A DNA stretch of 64,000 nucleotides, taken from NCBI GenBank assembly GCA_035708745.1, contig DASTFJ010000158.1:53641-117640 (forward strand), read 5' to 3'. This document shows positions 234 to 7,761 of this stretch, piece by piece. The notes beneath the pieces were generated by a model. That model saw only the letters and a program-made list of their open reading frames with translations, did not search any database and was not told where the DNA came from. A program made the translations under genes and the position numbers. Each line of letters begins with the position of its first letter. The first letter of the stretch is position 1. The DNA comes from Thermomicrobiales bacterium (GTDB lineage: Bacteria > Chloroflexota > Chloroflexia > Thermomicrobiales > UBA6265).

Positions 234-1595
234 TCAGTGGTGCCCCTGCAATGTGTCGAACAGCAGGGTGAACGTTGAACCCGAACCGAATTCGCTCGTG
301 ACGAGTATGCTCCCGCGTTGAGCTGCCATGAGTTCCGTTGCAATCGACAGACCGAGGCCGGCGCCGCCGCTCGATCGCGATCGGGCGGGATCGGCGCGAT
401 AGAACCGATCAAAGATGCGTCGCTGATCTTCGGCCGAGATGCCGATTCCTGTGTCCGAAACCTCGATGACGGCTTTGCCGGCTCGCATGGATGTCCGGAC
501 GAGCACGCGACCTCCATTTGGGGTGTATGCAATCGCATTGTCCAGCAGAATTGCGAGCACCTGCTCGGTTGCATCCGCATCGCAGCTCACAGTTACAGGG
601 ATGTTGGCATCCAGCTCGAGGGAGATATTCCGGTCTGCTGCCAGTGATTGAAAACGCTCAGCACCTCGACAACAGATTCCCGACAAATCGACTTGCTTTC
701 CGAGAAACTGCGTCGCGTGTTCGTCCATTCGAGCGAGTGTGAGCAGACTACTGACCAAGTTGGCCATGGAGTCGACCTCACGAACGATCGCGGTTTCGCT
801 TTCGTGCCGGTCAGACAGGGCGAGCTCCGGCGTCTGCTGCATGTACTCAGCTTCGGCTCGGATCAATGTGAGCGGAGTACGGAGTTCATGAGCCGCATCG
901 GCTACGAACGACCGTTGTCGCGCGAATGCTTCCCGGATTGGCCGCATCGATCGGTTCGCCAACCACCAACCGGCAGGAACCGCCAGCAACACGCCCAACA
1001 GCAGACCACCGATGGTTGACCAACGAACAAACTCGAGCAGGCGTTCGTTGGGTCCGAGTCCCATGCCTACCTGGATCGCGCCAATGATTCGCCCGTCCGC
1101 ATACACCGGTTCAGTTCGCAACCGAACCCGCTCGTGTTCGACGATCGCTGTTTCCAACACAACTTCGCCCTGTAGTGCGCGTTCGATCGAATCCTCCCTG
1201 GGGAGATGTTCGATCTCGATTGGACGCAACGTCGAAATTATGTTGCCATCGAGATCGACCCCATAGGCAATGGTGTCTCCGCTGCGAAGGAGCTCACGTG
1301 CCTGGTGCTCGTTTTCTTCCTCCCGGTCGTCATCCTCGTCGTCGTCATCGTTCGTTCCTCGTTTTCCATCAGCGAGCGCTGATGGCGTGCCACTGGCGTT
1401 GTTCGCATCGGCCTGGGCAAAAACGTTCGTCCAGAGTTCGACCGCGGATGCCGATCGACTCCGAAGTTCCATATTGGTTTGCGTCTCGATCCTTTGCGCG
1501 AGATAGAAGTAGCTCGCAACACCGACGATCGCGATCACCGCGATGACAACAAGCGCATTGAGTATTGCCAGGCGACGACTGATGGCGCGAAACAA
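234..1595 (-). CDS. Sensor histidine kinase (two TM, HAMP-like linker, HisKA, HATPase_c)
   Basis: Lies in ORF 234..1742. It has the H-box FVADAAHELRTPLT and the ATPase boxes LLDNAIAYTP, DTGIGI and GGAGLGLSI. I prefer TTG 1595 as the start (MFRAISRRLAILN..), with GGGTAGG upstream and an 8-nt gap after the regulator stop. ATG 1742 would overlap the regulator gene by 139 nt. Confidence 0.88.
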   Translation of the reverse strand: MFRAISRRLAILNALVVIAVIAIVGVASYFYLAQRIETQTNMELRSRSASAVELWTNVFAQADANNASGTPSALADGKRGTNDDDDEDDDREEENEHQARELLRSGDTIAYGVDLDGNIISTLRPIEIEHLPREDSIERALQGEVVLETAIVEHERVRLRTEPVYADGRIIGAIQVGMGLGPNERLLEFVRWSTIGGLLLGVLLAVPAGWWLANRSMRPIREAFARQRSFVADAAHELRTPLTLIRAEAEYMQQTPELALSDRHESETAIVREVDSMANLVSSLLTLARMDEHATQFLGKQVDLSGICCRGAERFQSLAADRNISLELDANIPVTVSCDADATEQVLAILLDNAIAYTPNGGRVLVRTSMRAGKAVIEVSDTGIGISAEDQRRIFDRFYRADPARSRSSGGAGLGLSIATELMAAQRGSILVTSEFGSGSTFTLLFDTLQGHH

Positions 1596-1603
1596 GTTTT
1601 CGC

Positions 1604-2278
1604 CTACCCTAACGAATAGCCATAGCCGCGAACAGTCCGAATGAGCGAGGGCGCTCCGGACGGCTCTGGCTCGAGCTTCTTGCGCAGATAATGAATGTAC
1701 AAGTCGACCACATTTCCAGTTGGGTCTGAATCTGGTCCCCACACCCTGCGAAGAAGCTGGTCGCGAGAAAGGACCTGACCTTTATGTCGTACCAGAGTTT
1801 CGAGTAATGCAAACTCACGGGGAGAGAGCTCGACTGGGTGATCGTCTCGCGTAACGACATGCCGCGCCAGATCGATTTCGATTTGTCCAAAACGCTGGAG
1901 ATCACCAACGACCATGCCGCCAGAACGGCGGCTCAGAGCGCGTACTCGTGCAACCAGCTCCTCGAAGGCAAACGGCTTCCCGAGATAGTCGTCAGCGCCC
2001 GCTCGGAGTCCATAGATTCTGTCGGGCACATCACCAAGCGCAGTCAATATGAGCACAGGGGTGTCGACCCGGTTTCTGCGCAACTCCCGCAATAGCGACA
2101 TGCCGTCCATCCCGGGTAACAACCGGTCCAGCACGATCACATCGTACGCTCCACTAGCCGCTTCATCGTACCCGCAATCGCCATCATTGCAGACGGTGGT
2201 GTGAAAAAACTCGCGGCGAAGGGTCTTGGAAATCAACTCCGCCAGCCTCGGTTCGTCTTCGACAATCAAGATGTTCAT
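1604..2278 (-). CDS. OmpR/PhoB-family response regulator
   Basis: Receiver domain (MNILIVEDEP.., VIVLDRLLPGMDG, LGKPF) followed by a winged-helix output domain (LSPREFALLETL.., RTVRGYGY). The start overlaps the upstream stop (ATGA at 2275-2278). Confidence 0.93.
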   Translation of the reverse strand: MNILIVEDEPRLAELISKTLRREFFHTTVCNDGDCGYDEAASGAYDVIVLDRLLPGMDGMSLLRELRRNRVDTPVLILTALGDVPDRIYGLRAGADDYLGKPFAFEELVARVRALSRRSGGMVVGDLQRFGQIEIDLARHVVTRDDHPVELSPREFALLETLVRHKGQVLSRDQLLRRVWGPDSDPTGNVVDLYIHYLRKKLEPEPSGAPSLIRTVRGYGYSLG

Positions 2279-3012
2279 CGGGGACGCTCGCGTGCCATGG
2301 CTTGCTGCCTCGCTTGCGCACCCATTCGATCGAACGGCTCATCCGGAAAAACTACGCGAGGCTGCCGGACTCCTGGCGTCCAGACGAGCACCCGCAACAC
2401 GCAGAGCAATGCGACTCCAGAGGCTGTGAGCAGGTATATCGCCTGCATTAGCGCCGCGCCGCTGCTGGCGCCAGAACCCACCCCGTGGAGCAGCGAAAGC
2501 GCGTACATCGGAAAGGCCAGCACATGCAGAAATCGCCAGACACGATACGGAATGTATTTTCGCAACGAAGCACTGGCAACAACAACGATGAACAAGTACA
2601 TCGCCAGGATTCCGAAACCGGTCCATGGTTCAGCCGTTGGAGCCTTGAACGGCGCAAACAGCTGCTCCAAGGAAAAGGGAAGGTGCTGATCGACAACGAG
2701 ACTCAACACGTGTCCCGCCAGGAATGCGTACGCAAGCTGACTCAAATACGTGTGCAAACTGAGCAACGTCGATTTGCTGGCAATCCGATCGAAGATGCGT
2801 GTCGTCTGGAGGAGTCCAACTACAATGATTCCCCAAAACAGGAAATAGAGCGTGATGCCGGTGGCTCGGGCAAGATACCAGCTCAGTGGGCTCAGCGATT
2901 GATTACTGACCGCCGAATACGCAACCATCGCGGCGAAACCGATGGGCACCGCCAAAAACAGCCCGCTTGTGAGACCACCAGCGGCGTTTGGCAACCGTAC
3001 TGGCTCCGTCAT
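2275..3012 (-). CDS. Ferric-reductase/YedZ(MsrQ)-like di-haem integral membrane protein
   Basis: Multi-TM protein with two His pairs 13-14 residues apart (LHTYLSQLAYAFLAGH and FLHVLAFPMYALSLLH), as in FRD/MsrQ-like haem-b domains. The track start at 3183 would overlap apbE by 158 nt. ATG 3012 (MTEPVRLPN..) or 3060 is more plausible. Confidence 0.7.
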   Translation of the reverse strand: MTEPVRLPNAAGGLTSGLFLAVPIGFAAMVAYSAVSNQSLSPLSWYLARATGITLYFLFWGIIVVGLLQTTRIFDRIASKSTLLSLHTYLSQLAYAFLAGHVLSLVVDQHLPFSLEQLFAPFKAPTAEPWTGFGILAMYLFIVVVASASLRKYIPYRVWRFLHVLAFPMYALSLLHGVGSGASSGAALMQAIYLLTASGVALLCVLRVLVWTPGVRQPRVVFPDEPFDRMGAQARQQAMARERPR

Positions 3013-3025
3013 TGGCTGATAGTTC

Positions 3026-3970
3026 TTACGCGACAGTCGCGTGGGGATTGACCGTTTCATAGCTTCCATTCTCATGTGCGACCAGTACGAAGCAAGCGGT
3101 CGTATCCGGCATGCGCTCGCCTCGCGCCAGCGCGACGAGGATCGACTTGGCTTCGATTTCAGCCGCCGCGACGGTGGCAGCAACTGTGGTCACACTCGGG
3201 GTCGACCAGGCAACTGCTCGACCATCGCGAGGGTCGAGCAAATGGTTCTGGCGACTACCGTCCGCAAACCAGGTACGCGAACGGGTACTCGAGGTTGCGA
3301 TTGCAACCGACTCGCCCGCTGGGAGCAGCAGGTTGGCAATATCCAGGCTCAGCTGACCAGGATGCTGTACGCCAACTCGCCAGGTATCCTCGGCGCCCGG
3401 TGTCCCCCAGGCTCGGAGATCTCCGCCGGCATCGACGATCGCGCCCGGCATCTCTCCCACCAGGTCATCGACCGAATCGACGAATGCCCCTTTGGCAACT
3501 CCACCCAGATCGACCCGCAAACCGGTTGGCAAACGTACGGCGCCGCGGTCCTGATCGATCTCGATCTCCCATAGTTCGCGATCCGAGAAAGGAGGACGTG
3601 CATCCGCTTCGAAGCGCGCGCCGCCGCGACTGTGCAGCTCCTCGAACGACCTGTCATAGCCGAGCCGCTCGAGCGCATCGAGCAGCGTTGGGTCGAATCG
3701 GCCCTCAGTAGTGCTGTGTCCTTCGATCGCCACTCTCAGGACCGAAACAAACGGCGATGATGTGGAGACCCACGCCCCACGGTGGTGATTGACGCGGCAA
3801 AGCTCGCTGTCTGGCCGAAACCGGCTGAAGATGCGCTCCCACCGATCCGCGCGCTCTCGTAGCTCGGTTACGACGACATCTGCCAGCGAAGAATCAACTC
3901 CCCACAAGACGAGCTCGATTGTCGTTCCCATAGCCGGGAACCTCCTCCGCTCAGGCTGCCCGTCCATCAC
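3026..3970 (-). CDS. apbE: ApbE-family FAD:protein FMN transferase
   Basis: N-terminal FPAMGTTIEL and the internal DLGGVAKGAFVD are ApbE/Ftp-like motifs. The GTG/ATG start overlaps the upstream stop (GTGATGA at 3964-3970). No hydrophobic signal sequence is visible. Confidence 0.8.
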   Translation of the reverse strand: MMDGQPERRRFPAMGTTIELVLWGVDSSLADVVVTELRERADRWERIFSRFRPDSELCRVNHHRGAWVSTSSPFVSVLRVAIEGHSTTEGRFDPTLLDALERLGYDRSFEELHSRGGARFEADARPPFSDRELWEIEIDQDRGAVRLPTGLRVDLGGVAKGAFVDSVDDLVGEMPGAIVDAGGDLRAWGTPGAEDTWRVGVQHPGQLSLDIANLLLPAGESVAIATSSTRSRTWFADGSRQNHLLDPRDGRAVAWSTPSVTTVAATVAAAEIEAKSILVALARGERMPDTTACFVLVAHENGSYETVNPHATVA

Positions 3971-4224
3971 GAACCCCGCGTTCTCGTATGCGTCGGTTGC
4001 TCCTGGTTTCGTTGCGAGGAACCGACAGTGACGCGAGGATCTTGCGACTGGCGGCTCGAAGCGGCGATCACTTCGCCACTAGATTCGATTCGCGCAGACG
4101 GGGCGGGAGCGGTCGCAGAGACGACCCCCAGGATACCGGCGAACCCCAGAGCCGTTATTGCGAACATCAGTCTGCGCAAACGAGTCTCCTTCCGAAGTCG
4201 GTGGCCTTGAGTTCGGAACCCCAT
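3967..4224 (-). CDS. Small single-TM hypothetical protein (85 aa)
   Basis: Only the 3' part of ORF 3967..4482 is credible. The 5' T/M-rich part is the out-of-frame reading of the Asp-rich gene. ATG 4224 gives a basic N-terminus, one TM (LMFAITALGFAGILGVVSA) and a short S/Q/R-rich tail. ATG 4167 is an alternative start. No family recognised. Confidence 0.4.
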   Translation of the reverse strand: MGFRTQGHRLRKETRLRRLMFAITALGFAGILGVVSATAPAPSARIESSGEVIAASSRQSQDPRVTVGSSQRNQEQPTHTRTRGS

Positions 4225-4288
4225 CGCTCCGAGAGGGTCGGTCAGACTGCGAGCCCGCACCGCTTTCCGGACGATCGCTTCCCGATCA

Positions 4289-4651
4289 CTAGTCGTCATC
4301 TTCGTCGCCATGGTCGTCATCGTGCTCATCGTAGTAGCCGCCGTGATCGTCGTCATCATCGTCGTCGCCGCTTTCGAAGTCATCGTCGGAATAGGCAGAG
4401 TCATCGTCCCAACTCGTTGTCGGTAACGGTCCACTAGAGTCGATTCCGGCGTTCGGCGTTTCTGCGACTTGGCCTTCGCCATTCGTGTCAGCCGGGTTAG
4501 CGTTCTGCATCAGTTGATTCCCCACCAGCTGAGTCGTGCCGGCGCTACCACTCGAAAACCCGGGCAACGAGTCGCGCATGGTCACCGCGATTGCGACGAA
4601 TGCAATCGACAAAATGATTGCTAATGCTGTTCCGTTTCGTATTGACAACAT
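4289..4651 (-). CDS. Signal-anchored mini-protein with Asp/His-rich C-terminal tail
   Basis: Lies in ORF 4289..4678. ATG 4651 has GGAGAA 6 nt upstream (MLSIRNGTALAIILSIAFVAIAV..). The last 41 residues (SWDDDSAYSDDDFESGDDDDDDDHGGYYDEHDDDHGDEDDD) contain 21 Asp, 3 Glu and 3 His. No family recognised. Confidence 0.6.
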   Translation of the reverse strand: MLSIRNGTALAIILSIAFVAIAVTMRDSLPGFSSGSAGTTQLVGNQLMQNANPADTNGEGQVAETPNAGIDSSGPLPTTSWDDDSAYSDDDFESGDDDDDDDHGGYYDEHDDDHGDEDDD

Positions 4652-4712
4652 GTCGTTTCTCCGAATTCGCTGCTTCATCGAGCAACCGATGCATCAACCA
4701 TAGAAAGTGAGA

Positions 4713-4730
4713 ATTAGAGGTCGATTAGAG
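4713..4730. promoter_or_regulatory. Direct repeat ATTAGAG-N4-ATTAGAG (11-bp phasing), candidate OmpR-type regulator binding site
   Basis: ATTAGAG occurs at 4713-4719 and again at 4724-4730. The site is in the AT-richer divergent region between the acidic-protein operon (start 4651, minus) and the VIT1 gene (start 4913, plus). Confidence 0.35.
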
Positions 4731-4912
4731 CGTTATCCGAAATTGGAGGTTGCATTCCAAAGTCACCGGCAAGCCAACAAGTGAGGTATGGGGTGCCCCC
4801 TGATTCGAGCGGGATCGCCGCTCGGATCGAGGACCTGTCTATCGGTCCTCTTTCAGGTATGCTGCACTCTCGATTTCCGAGAACACGACAGTTCCCGCGG
4901 AGACTTCGCGCG

Positions 4913-5668
4913 ATGACTGAGGAAGTAGACAAGGTTGACCCGACCGGGTCCGTTGCAGCGATGTCTCCACACAAGGACGATGAGCGTGCCGGTTCGCTCG
5001 GCGACCGGCTCAACCAGCTTCGAGCCGGAGTGCTCGGAGCGAACGACGGTATCGTGTCGGTCGCTGGCGTCGTCGTCGGAGTGGCCGGCGCATCGGCCGA
5101 GCGGACCCAGATTCTGACGGCCGGGGTGGCGGCGCTGGTCGCGGGCGCGCTCTCGATGGCAGGCGGCGAATACGTTTCGGTGAGCACCCAGCGCGACACC
5201 GAGATTGCCGCGATCGCCAAGGAATCCGAAGAGCTGCGCACCATGCCAGAGGCGGAGCTCGATGAGCTGGCAGCCTACTACCAGAAACGCGGTATCTCCT
5301 CCGAGACGGCGCACGCGTTCGCGCGGGAGCTCACCGCGGTCGATGCGCTGCGCGCCCACACAGAAATGGAGTTCAACATCACTCCAGGGGAGTTGACCAG
5401 CCCATGGCACGCGGCGTACGCGTCCTTGGTTGCCTTCGCCATCGGTGCGGTGATTCCCCTTCTTGCAATCGCGCTTCCACCGGATTCACTTCGGATCTGG
5501 GTCTGTGTCGCATCGGTGATCGTGGCGTTATTCCTAACCGGATATATCAGCGCACGTCTTGGAGATGCGCCGAAATGGCCGGCAATCGTGCGCAATGTCG
5601 TGGTCGGTATGTTGACGATGGGCATCGCCTGGGCAGTCGGCAGACTCTTTGGGGTCGCCACCGGTTGA
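4913..5668 (+). CDS. VIT1/CCC1-family iron/manganese transporter
   Basis: LRAGVLGANDGIVSVAGVVVGVAGA plus a C-terminal multi-TM half are typical of the VIT family. ATG 4913 (MTEEVDKVD..) is preferred over the track start at 4781. Confidence 0.82.
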   Translation: MTEEVDKVDPTGSVAAMSPHKDDERAGSLGDRLNQLRAGVLGANDGIVSVAGVVVGVAGASAERTQILTAGVAALVAGALSMAGGEYVSVSTQRDTEIAAIAKESEELRTMPEAELDELAAYYQKRGISSETAHAFARELTAVDALRAHTEMEFNITPGELTSPWHAAYASLVAFAIGAVIPLLAIALPPDSLRIWVCVASVIVALFLTGYISARLGDAPKWPAIVRNVVVGMLTMGIAWAVGRLFGVATG

Positions 5669-6462: not shown

Positions 6463-7761
6463 TTGCTCGATCTCAAGCTCATTCGAGAACAACCGGACAT
6501 GATCCGGAGCGCGCTGGTCGCGCTCAATGCCACTGCACCGCTCGACGAGATCCTCTCGCTCGACGAATCGCGCCGGCTGGTTGTGACGGATGTCGAGTCG
6601 CTCAAGGCCAAACGTAACGAAGGGTCCAAGGAAGTCGGCCGAACCAGGGACGCCGACCGACGCACCGCGTTGATCGAAGAAATGCGGTTGCTGGGCGACG
6701 ACATCGCTGCCAAGGACGAGCAGGTCCGAATCATGGACGAGGAGCTCTACAATCTCCTCCTCCAGATGCCGAACCTGCCAATGGCCGGGGTGCCGGTCGC
6801 TCCGGATGAGCGCGGCAATGTCGTCACCAAGACCGTCGATGTCGAGCGAACGAAGGACTTCCAGGTGCGCCCGCATTGGGAAATCGGCGAAGAGCTCGGA
6901 ATCATCGACTTCGATCGTGGCGTCAAAATCGCCGGCACGCGCAATTACGTGCTGCGCGGCGATGGCGCCCGTCTCCAGCGCGCGCTGATCGCCTGGATGA
7001 TCGATCTTCACGTCAGGAAGCATGGATACACCGAGGTCTACCCGCCCTACCTGGTTCTGACCGAGATGCTCGTCGGCACTGGGCAGCTGCCGAAATTCGC
7101 CGAAACGCAGTTCCGCGATATCGAGGGCGAGAAGTGGCTGATACCGACTGCCGAAGTCCCGGTCACCAATATGTATCGCGACGAGATCCTCGACGAGTCC
7201 GAGTTGCCGATTTACAACACGGCCTACACCGCCTGCTTCCGTCGCGAGCAGATTTCGGCCGGCCGCGACGTACGTGGCATCAAGCGCGGCTACCAGTTCG
7301 ATAAAGTCGAGATGGTCAAGATCGTTCATCCCGACACATCGATCGAGGAACACGCGAAACTGATTTCCGAGGCGGAGGACGTGCTTATCGGATTGGAGCT
7401 TCCCTATCGATTGCTGCAAATCTGCACGGGAGACCTCTCCTTCACCGCGGCCAACAAGGTGGATCTGGAAGTCTGGTCGCCGGGCGTGGACGAATGGTTG
7501 GAGGTTTCGTCCTGTTCCAATTTCCTCGATTTCCAGGCGCGCCGGGCAAATATCAAGTTCCGTCCGGAAGGCGGCGGCAAGATCCAGTTTGTGCACACGC
7601 TGAACGGCTCCGGCATGGCATTGCCGCGCACCATGATTGCCATTATGGAGAACTACCAGCAGGCCGACGGCACCTTCGAGGTGCCCAAAGTCATCCAGCC
7701 GTACATGGGTGGCCAGACTATCATTGGCAAGCAAGGGCCGATTGGTCCGGCAGTCTCGTAA
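6463..7761 (+). CDS. serS: Seryl-tRNA synthetase
   Basis: Starting at TTG 6463 gives MLDLKLIREQPDMIRSAL.., the canonical SerRS N-terminus, with GGAAAGG upstream. Class II motifs are present (FRRE, GSGMALPRT). Confidence 0.95.
   Translation: MLDLKLIREQPDMIRSALVALNATAPLDEILSLDESRRLVVTDVESLKAKRNEGSKEVGRTRDADRRTALIEEMRLLGDDIAAKDEQVRIMDEELYNLLLQMPNLPMAGVPVAPDERGNVVTKTVDVERTKDFQVRPHWEIGEELGIIDFDRGVKIAGTRNYVLRGDGARLQRALIAWMIDLHVRKHGYTEVYPPYLVLTEMLVGTGQLPKFAETQFRDIEGEKWLIPTAEVPVTNMYRDEILDESELPIYNTAYTACFRREQISAGRDVRGIKRGYQFDKVEMVKIVHPDTSIEEHAKLISEAEDVLIGLELPYRLLQICTGDLSFTAANKVDLEVWSPGVDEWLEVSSCSNFLDFQARRANIKFRPEGGGKIQFVHTLNGSGMALPRTMIAIMENYQQADGTFEVPKVIQPYMGGQTIIGKQGPIGPAVS

Follow-up and report, generated by a model that had tools for sequence, protein, structure and literature searches.

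ApbE flavinylation is a known bacterial route for placing covalent flavin on extracytoplasmic electron carriers, and a secretion or lipoprotein signal is typical of the ApbE family, though not universal. To our knowledge, all accepted ApbE substrates are folded domains (FMN_bind, NqrB/RnfD, DUF2271, DUF3570, Flavodoxin_4 and FMN_red). Here we describe an apbE operon of a Thermomicrobiales bacterium (Chloroflexota; assembly GCA_035708745.1), located in 64,000 nucleotides of contig DASTFJ010000158.1 (this whole stretch is called the window below). In this operon apbE is preceded by the gene of a small membrane-anchored protein, ORF5, whose conserved C-terminal tail is a candidate flavin acceptor, and is followed by the gene of a ferric-reductase-like membrane protein of the MsrQ/FRD type (FRD).

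The closest described systems are the MsrQ-like clusters of Meheust et al. (2021, eLife, PMC8238504), in which apbE lies beside a gene for a six-helix, two-haem membrane protein of family PF01794. An FMN_bind gene or fusion is typical of these clusters, as a first sequence-only reading of the window had stated; they occur mainly in Actinobacteria, and 153 of them adjoin VIT1 and were proposed to be iron reductases (PMC8238504). The apbE and PF01794 genes of the window are likewise adjacent and overlapping, which is the operational definition of an MsrQ-like cluster in that study. However, the window has no FMN_bind, its ApbE carries no signal peptide, its upstream slots are occupied by a Thr/Ser-tail protein (ORF5) and an Asp/His-rich anchored protein (ORF6), and a two-component system is attached. 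The collection of Meheust et al. (PMC8238504) needed a signal peptide or lipobox on ApbE or FMN_bind, and the ApbE of the window has neither; such a filter would have hidden the signal-less ApbE clade described below. Nothing on Thermomicrobia was found in the supplement of that study, and no description of the tail-protein family was found in the literature.

Other systems share single features with this locus. In FMN_red proteins, an unstructured C-terminal extension was shown experimentally to be flavinylated (Huang et al. 2024, mSystems, PMC11334425). ORF5 resembles them in having its putative site on a disordered extension at the C-terminus; for FMN_red proteins, it was proposed that the tethered flavin swings into a flavin site nearby. 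However, the FMN_red extension belongs to a folded flavoprotein and has a canonical-like motif, whereas ORF5 has no folded domain, so that the flavin site would have to come from another protein, the FRD. For the engineered 'flavin-tag' (Tong et al. 2021, as summarised in PMC12052999), a linear motif of 7 residues is all that ApbE needs; the tag performs best when placed terminally, and flavinylation is little affected when the motif Asp is replaced by Ala. The tag is artificial, however, and reads D-x-x-[S/T]-G-A-[S/T], whereas the natural ORF5 tail reads P-x-H-T-R-T-R-G-S. Cytosolic ApbEs exist (PMC12052999). The Klebsiella pneumoniae enzyme (cited in PMC12052999) also lacks a signal peptide, but its substrate is a cytosolic fumarate reductase with an FMN_bind domain, and it has neither a membrane-anchored tail nor an FRD partner. 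The membrane subunit of E. coli MsrPQ (YedYZ) belongs to the same haem-binding FRD superfamily; E. coli MsrQ, however, serves the periplasmic molybdoenzyme MsrP without an ApbE or a tail protein, and no MsrP-like gene is present here. Finally, orphan apbE genes occur in 4 % of genomes (Meheust et al. 2021, PMC8238504), so ApbE substrates still to be identified are expected.

A conserved C-terminal tail upstream of apbE

The six genes of the operon run on the minus strand in the order ORF6, ORF5, ApbE, FRD, OmpR-type regulator and histidine kinase (Table 1). ORF5 has an even chance, in our judgement from the sequence comparisons, of being a 'flavin-on-a-string' acceptor that serves the FRD and replaces the folded FMN_bind acceptor. 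It consists of a basic N-terminal block RKAVRARSLTDPLGAMGFR, an invariant Arg-Arg pair, a single membrane helix, a variable disordered linker of 45-50 residues and an invariant C-terminus. In the alignment of homologues this C-terminus reads Q-P-x-H-T-R-T-R-G-S-stop and is near-invariant, including the hydroxyl residues Thr at -4 and Ser at -1. A search of ORF5 against 5.8 billion clustered proteins gave 18 homologues, all with both ends conserved, and no Pfam or NCBIfam model matched the protein. The sequence-only reading had set aside the two small upstream proteins as low-complexity, but the C-terminus of ORF5 proved to be the only conserved motif-like Thr/Ser site of the operon.

ORF5 had also been taken to be 85 aa long. 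We concluded that it has at least 110 aa, since the conserved block RKAVRARSLTDPLGAMGFR lies 5' of the Met chosen in that reading. The exact start is uncertain, with more in-frame ATGs upstream inside the ORF6 overlap. Here the Asp codons (GAT/GAC) repeated in ORF6 are read in the ORF5 frame as MTT/TTM repeats, which makes the start codon ambiguous. ApbE (HET9660562.1) and ORF6 (HET9660563.1) have successive accessions at NCBI, so that ORF5 is apparently unannotated in the record of this metagenome-assembled genome.

When the alignment of the ApbE clade was scanned against one genome per GTDB species, 80 loci were obtained at 30-40 % identity. After others were added, the set comprised 88 loci (L numbers below), mostly from Chloroflexota and Actinomycetota with a few from Bacillota; cultured carriers among them are Neobacillus drentensis (L066), Ectobacillus (L078) and Streptomyces (L021). 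A single-helix protein with a low-complexity linker and an [S/T]-x-[small]-[S/T] C-terminus, sometimes trailed by Arg or Lys, was encoded just upstream of apbE in at least 56 of the 88 loci, and in most loci the stop of this tail gene overlaps or abuts the apbE start. In a first pass, a similar tail pattern was seen in 51 of 66 adjacent upstream ORFs, compared with 2.1 % of 5,821 background ORFs from the same loci.

A logo of the tails from 61 loci showed Thr (44) or Ser (15) at -4 (59/61 together) and Ser at -1 in 55. The positions between them were more variable, with Arg (27), Gly (15) or His (7) at -3 and Gly (20), Ser (19) or Ala (6) at -2. Further upstream, Thr was found at -6 in 29 tails and Pro at -9/-8. 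Exactly [S/T]-G-[G/A]-[S/T]-COOH occurs in 14 tails (SGAS in L087, TGGS in L088 and others), and the remaining tails, that of the window included, have R or H at motif position 2. The series of variants among the relatives (SGAS, TGGS, TRGS/TRAS, TRSS, THTS) suggests that the tail is anchored on the canonical ApbE core [S/T]-G-A-[S/T], and the T-R-G-S-COOH of ORF5 can be placed in register with it.

The tail residues are encoded differently in the window, L001, L003 and L004 (Arg by AGA, CGT, CGC or AGG; Gly by GGT, GGG, GGC or GGA; Ser by TCG, TCC or TCA). An invariant tail with differing synonymous codons implies that the peptide is under selection, rather than the ribosome-binding site of apbE with which its codons overlap. 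A Shine-Dalgarno artefact as the cause of the conservation was rejected on the grounds of this codon diversity together with purine-poor tails elsewhere. We also rejected an ORF5-ApbE fusion produced by -1 frameshifting, as the junction has no slippery heptamer, the tail sequence is conserved in its terminal position, and ORF5 and apbE remain separate in orthologues. A protein of 351 aa in ENA (P0077, on a single 2.2-kb contig) has an ORF5-like N-terminus and helix joined directly to an ApbE from which both the first strand and the C-terminal end are missing; a natural fusion, a deletion and an artefact of assembly are all possible origins.

Absence of a canonical flavin acceptor from the cluster

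No FMN_bind match was obtained with Pfam, even at E<=1, for the small ORFs or for any ORF of at least 50 aa on either strand of 3789-4703, which speaks against an FMN_bind domain hidden in another frame and bears out the earlier claim that no such acceptor is recognisable here. The strict D-x-x-[S/T]-G-A-[S/T] motif is present at a conserved position in no protein of the window's cluster, and D-x-x-[ST]-G-A-[ST] was not found within 5 kb of apbE in any of 86 related loci scanned. None of 51 upstream small proteins of relatives has a Pfam domain, and precomputed Pfam annotations of further neighbourhoods contain no FMN_bind.

Two further places for a canonical acceptor were considered and rejected. 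The longer FRDs of relatives carry no fused FMN_bind, since Pfam matched Ferric_reduct only or, for two loci of actinobacteria, FAD_binding_6/NAD_binding_1/Fer2. The string [ST]GA[ST] recurs in six other proteins of the window (a GAF histidine kinase, enolase, iPGM, RuvA, an amidohydrolase and an Fe-S/CCG protein), and all of these are cytosolic or housekeeping proteins.

The sequence-only reading had noted that the idea of a missing acceptor would fall if orthologous clusters always kept a canonical acceptor next door and did not conserve the two small ORFs. The neighbourhoods show the opposite, since both small ORFs are positionally conserved and a canonical acceptor never adjoins. Among the options left by that reading (a novel acceptor, one encoded in trans, or a module that works differently), the novel acceptor is the best-supported branch, with ORF5 and not the membrane protein as its probable location; an acceptor in trans may still be encoded outside these 64 kb.

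A signal-less ApbE with a conserved but atypical active site

ApbE matched PF02424 over residues 14-280 with 145.1 bits (cut-off 25.6). Its orthologues at 44-64 % identity are all about 313 aa long, and its relatives in PDB are 1vrm, 3pnd and 6nxi. When ApbE was aligned to 1vrm and 6nxi, Ser227, His243 and Glu271 corresponded to Ser241, His257 and Asp285 of V. cholerae ApbE, which are the only residues described as conserved in that active site (PMC12052999). Asp285 belongs to the Ser-His-Asp triad and to the metal site, so that Glu271 stands at a triad position. Ser227 and His243 are invariant in 58 clade members. Glu271 and Lys275 are nearly invariant in the clade, and Lys275 takes the place of the canonical Thr four residues on. 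In the window, residues 271-275 are encoded at 3145-3159; the signal-less clade has A-E-[IV]-x-x-K in this segment, compared with A-D-G-L-x-T in solved ApbEs. From these residues the enzyme looks competent but atypical.

The AlphaFold model of ApbE has pLDDT >90 from residue 7, with residues 7-13 forming the first strand (pLDDT 86-97). As the fold begins at residue 7, there is no room for a signal sequence, and the earlier observation that ApbE lacks a signal peptide was confirmed. The protein starts 10-13 residues before the first strand, and likewise across the clade. In every related locus with a readable N-terminus, only a few residues precede the F-x-A-M-G-T strand of ApbE, and no signal peptide is seen. 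Many clade ApbEs have R-R-x-F directly before the A-M-G-T strand (ERRRFPAMGT at 3931-3970 in the window); this resembles a twin-arginine motif but sits inside the folded domain.

The di-haem membrane partner

The FRD matched Ferric_reduct with E=1.2e-7 (32.3 bits, cut-off 28), and the identical protein is annotated at NCBI (P0139). From conservation with L001 and L003, its start is probably at 3060 (261 aa, the NCBI choice) or at 3075 (266 aa, matching L001); ATG 3012 was rejected as the start, since the residue aligned with that Met is Val in both L001 and L003. In the 266-aa numbering, His108, His122, His184 and His197 (codons starting at 2754, 2712, 2526 and 2487) are invariant in 74 homologues. 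They lie on two helices with spacings of 14 and 13 residues, which supports two bis-His haems.

The conserved loop residues are on the predicted outer face. In L057 and L086 an exported domain precedes the first core helix, which places the N-terminus of the FRD core outside and its C-terminus inside; the loop that follows the fourth His would accordingly face outward. The FRD of many Chloroflexota is extended by about 150 aa; this additional domain contains two conserved Cys, seems beta-rich from its composition and has no match in Pfam. It is C-terminal in L010, L013, L016-L019 and L022 and N-terminal in L057 and L086, where it follows a signal peptide, and it is predicted to be extracytoplasmic.

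Cytoplasmic electron donors are encoded in some relatives. A small ferredoxin gene that could act as donor is present in L006 (Thermoleophilia, 7468-7680), and NAD_binding_1 and Fer2 are fused to the FRD in Streptomyces L021 (7885-9432) and Nocardioidaceae L029 (956-2743), with FAD_binding_6 in L029 only. The window encodes no ferredoxin or fused FAD/NAD/2Fe-2S donor for the FRD.

Operon layout and conservation of the cluster

All six genes of the co-directional run from 4651 to 234 were present as the sequence-only reading had described them, overlapping or nearly abutting. The FRD and ApbE proteins of the window are identical to NCBI entries (contig of 155,534 nt). Pfam searches of the products matched ApbE, Ferric_reduct, Response_reg/Trans_reg_C and HisKA/HATPase_c, and NCBIfam gave nothing more specific. 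The stop codon of ORF5 (TGA, 3969-3967) overlaps the GTG/ATG start of ApbE. Of the junctions listed earlier, ATGA at 2278-2275 and the 8-nt gap at 1596-1603, which precedes the kinase TTG start at 1595, were correct, and the heptamer at 3970-3964 is GTGATGG, not GTGATGA, a trivial difference. Two overlaps were not in that list: ORF5, when begun at ATG 4299, overlaps the end of ORF6 (stop at 4291-4289), and the 3' end of apbE is shared with the FRD gene over 35-50 nt, depending on which FRD start is used.

Table 1 Features of the apbE operon and its divergent neighbour in the window
Feature	Coordinates	Strand	Size	Description
Sensor histidine kinase	234..1595	minus	453 aa	HisKA + HATPase_c; TTG start
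Response regulator	1604..2278	minus		OmpR/PhoB type; Response_reg + Trans_reg_C
FRD	2275..3075	minus	261-266 aa	Ferric-reductase-like (MsrQ/FRD) membrane protein, PF01794; six predicted helices
ApbE	3026..3970	minus	313-314 aa	ApbE-family FAD:protein FMN transferase; Pfam E=3.9e-42; HET9660562.1
ORF5	3967..4299	minus	~110 aa	Proposed flavin acceptor; ends conserved in homologues
ORF5 tail codons	3970..3990	minus		H-T-R-T-R-G-S-COOH, proposed flavinylation motif
ORF6	4289..4651	minus	120 aa	N-terminal membrane helix; Asp/His-rich acidic C-terminal tail DDDDDDDHGGYYDEHDDDHGDEDDD
Direct repeat	4713..4730	minus		CTCTAAT-N4-CTCTAAT, 11-bp period; divergent ORF6/VIT1 promoter region
VIT1-family transporter	4781..5668	plus		Fe/Mn transporter, divergent; PF01988, E=1.1e-66

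The identical six-gene set is found in L001, L003 and L004, where ApbE is 47-64 % identical to that of the window. The flanks are shared as well, with VIT1 (absent in L004), HNH, SerRS and MoxR on one side and UvrA on the other. The same genes and flanks in these three loci indicate that the arrangement is not due to chance. In the more distant L005 (41 %) and a JGI locus, the small ORFs, ApbE, membrane protein, regulator and kinase are kept and VIT1 is nearby. The pairing of apbE with the FRD is kept across phyla, an FRD homologue following ApbE directly in 74 of the 88 loci. Four genes (acidic His-rich protein, tail protein, ApbE and FRD) may form a cassette that is present in dozens of Chloroflexota and Actinomycetota genomes.

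ORF6 and the regulatory genes

ORF6 has orthologues in L001, L003 and L004 and no Pfam match. The NCBI entry (hypothetical protein HET9660563.1) has 129 aa from the upstream ATG 4678. We take ORF6 to be 120 aa long, the length given earlier; its start at 4651 lies behind a conserved GGAG ribosome-binding site. Of the 88 loci, 32 have an Asp/Glu/His-rich ORF (e.g. HEDEHEDEHEDDHEDDH and DDDDHDDDDHDDDDDHE) in the vicinity of apbE, usually directly before the tail gene, which suggests a metal-binding component. In L005, a 71-aa ORF upstream of the cassette (4991-5206) has a clear twin-arginine signal TRRNVLASAALA followed by a His/Asp/Arg-rich tail and may be the counterpart of ORF6 in that lineage.

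The attached regulator (receiver and winged-helix domains) and kinase (HisKA and HATPase_c) form a two-component system of the OmpR/PhoB type. The closest NCBIfam models of the regulator are the heavy-metal regulators cztR/silR/copR, with scores below their cut-offs. The kinase has membrane helices at residues 9-32 and 192-212, and the extracytoplasmic loop between them contains an acidic insert TNDDDDEDDDREEENEH (1305-1355) that echoes the acidic tail of ORF6; a similar acidic insert is present in the kinase of L003. L001 and L003 conserve the CTCTAAT direct repeat and L004 conserves part of it; the repeat is predicted to be a likely binding site of the operon's OmpR-type regulator. VIT1 adjoins in L001, L003, L005 and the JGI locus, and this adjacency is confined to Thermomicrobiales-like loci.

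Proposed mechanism and alternative explanations

The operon may be a variant of the MsrQ-like, flavinylation-linked transmembrane electron-transfer module in which FMN_bind is replaced by ORF5, a reading for which we consider the chances to be balanced. The signal-less, translationally coupled ApbE would attach FMN through a phosphoester to Ser110 or Thr107 of ORF5, with cytoplasmic FAD as the source. The FMN-bearing tail would then dock on the di-haem FRD as a tethered flavin cofactor, and electrons would cross the membrane via the two haems and then FMN, to or from a metal substrate. Iron would be the probable metal, bound by the Asp/His-rich tail of ORF6; the neighbouring VIT1 gene points to iron, as does the two-component system, which resembles metal sensors and is likely autoregulated through the CTCTAAT repeat.

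Several points weigh against flavinylation of the tail. The window tail T-R-G-S has Arg in place of the canonical Gly and no upstream Asp, and -1 is almost always Ser in the family, whereas known ApbEs prefer Thr at the last motif position (PMC12052999). The chemistry of the clade might differ, given Lys275 in place of Thr. When ApbE and ORF5 were modelled by AlphaFold as a fusion, the tail had a pLDDT of about 40 and there was no sign of docking, in a model made without FAD or Mg and from an unpaired alignment, which folded ApbE well but is uninformative on docking; a single-sequence run (pLDDT 35) gave no docking signal. The compartments are a further difficulty. The charge bias around the helix predicts an N-in/C-out topology for most tail proteins, most clearly in Bacillota and ambiguously in a Gaiellales-type subgroup. 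With an ApbE that has no export signal and a tail predicted to be C-out, enzyme and site would be on opposite sides of the membrane unless the tail is modified before translocation, and we know of no precedent for such an order of events with ApbE.

The most economical reconciliation would be that the C-terminus of ORF5 is modified before the unfolded tail is translocated. This order of events would explain why the site is terminal, why the linker is disordered and why the genes are translationally coupled, and FAD would not need to be exported in these mostly single-membrane lineages. A cytoplasmic tail that feeds the inner haem would be an alternative fit. Tat export was rejected as a general answer, because the Arg-Arg pair before the ORF5 helix, invariant in the Thermomicrobiales group, is missing in many family members. 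A wider proposal, which we make only tentatively, is that these proteins represent an unrecognised, widespread class of ApbE substrates (anchor, disordered tether and C-terminal motif of 4-7 residues) that would be flavinylated in the cytoplasm by a dedicated signal-less ApbE clade and then exported as tethered FMN for a di-haem FRD.

Among the alternatives, the one that survives best, although we regard it as unlikely, is that ORF5 is a real partner of ApbE and the FRD that is not flavinylated. Its tail would be a docking or pseudo-substrate peptide, for example one that tethers ApbE or assembles the FRD complex, and the true acceptor would be encoded elsewhere. The departure of the tail from the strict motif and the lack of confident docking by AlphaFold would fit this explanation, and the 64 kb of the window are only a part of a contig that is at least 155 kb long. 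However, the pairing of apbE and FRD is kept across phyla without a canonical acceptor within 5 kb in any of the 86 loci scanned, and the six other [ST]GA[ST] proteins of the window do not qualify, being cytosolic or housekeeping. Moreover, position-specific hydroxyls and the SGAS/TGGS variants are what would be expected of a substrate.

It is rather improbable that the signal-less ApbE clade transfers no flavin to protein at all and instead binds or hydrolyses FAD in the cytoplasm (Ftp-like), as a partner by which flavin is supplied to, or kept at, the inner face of the FRD. Such a role would be consistent with the absence of a visible signal peptide, with the change of Asp285 to Glu and of the neighbouring Thr to Lys throughout the clade, and with a strict pairing of ApbE with the FRD and not with a folded acceptor. 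However, the catalytic Ser and the general-base His are invariant, and the conserved, translationally coupled tail protein would be left unexplained. An extra cytoplasmic flavin donor also looks redundant in those relatives whose FRD is fused to its own FAD/NAD/2Fe-2S module or lies beside a ferredoxin gene.

Two explanations have very little probability left. The sequence-only reading had pointed to the string GVGSGASS in the FRD, directly after the fourth haem His, as a possible acceptor site, and this string does exist (2484-2461, with S-G-A-S at 2475-2464); nevertheless, the site is not conserved and was rejected, as 69 of 74 homologues have Asp at its position 4, the last residue of a conserved G-[T/S]-D motif in a loop predicted on the outer face, and close orthologues have AGSS, AGAS or TGTD. 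Equally hard to credit is the explanation that ORF5 is not a gene and that tail conservation reflects the ribosome-binding site and start region of apbE: the tail codons do lie 1-21 nt upstream of the apbE start, some tails contain GGAGG (TGGS, ACC GGA GGC TCG) and NCBI apparently does not annotate ORF5, but every tail residue has different synonymous codons in different genomes, many tails lack a purine-rich run (e.g. HTRTHVS, FTGSHTS, ITTTHSS), the N-terminal block, Arg-Arg pair and membrane helix are conserved as protein, and homologues of ORF5 were predicted by other gene callers.

Implications

If the tail is not flavinylated, the cluster is an orphan ApbE/FRD module whose acceptor is still to be found. 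If the tail of ORF5 is flavinylated, a natural acceptor without a fold would join the list of ApbE substrates, and a gene family that is often missed or left nameless by annotation pipelines would gain a function. The four-gene cassette would then be a defined unit in which the place of flavinylation relative to export becomes testable, and TRGS, TRSS and THTS would be natural variants for flavin-tag engineering. Should a class of tails flavinylated in the cytoplasm exist, it would explain part of the genomes whose apbE is still an orphan. It would also mean that mostly single-membrane bacteria could build extracytoplasmic flavoproteins without exporting FAD, by a natural counterpart of the flavin-tag.

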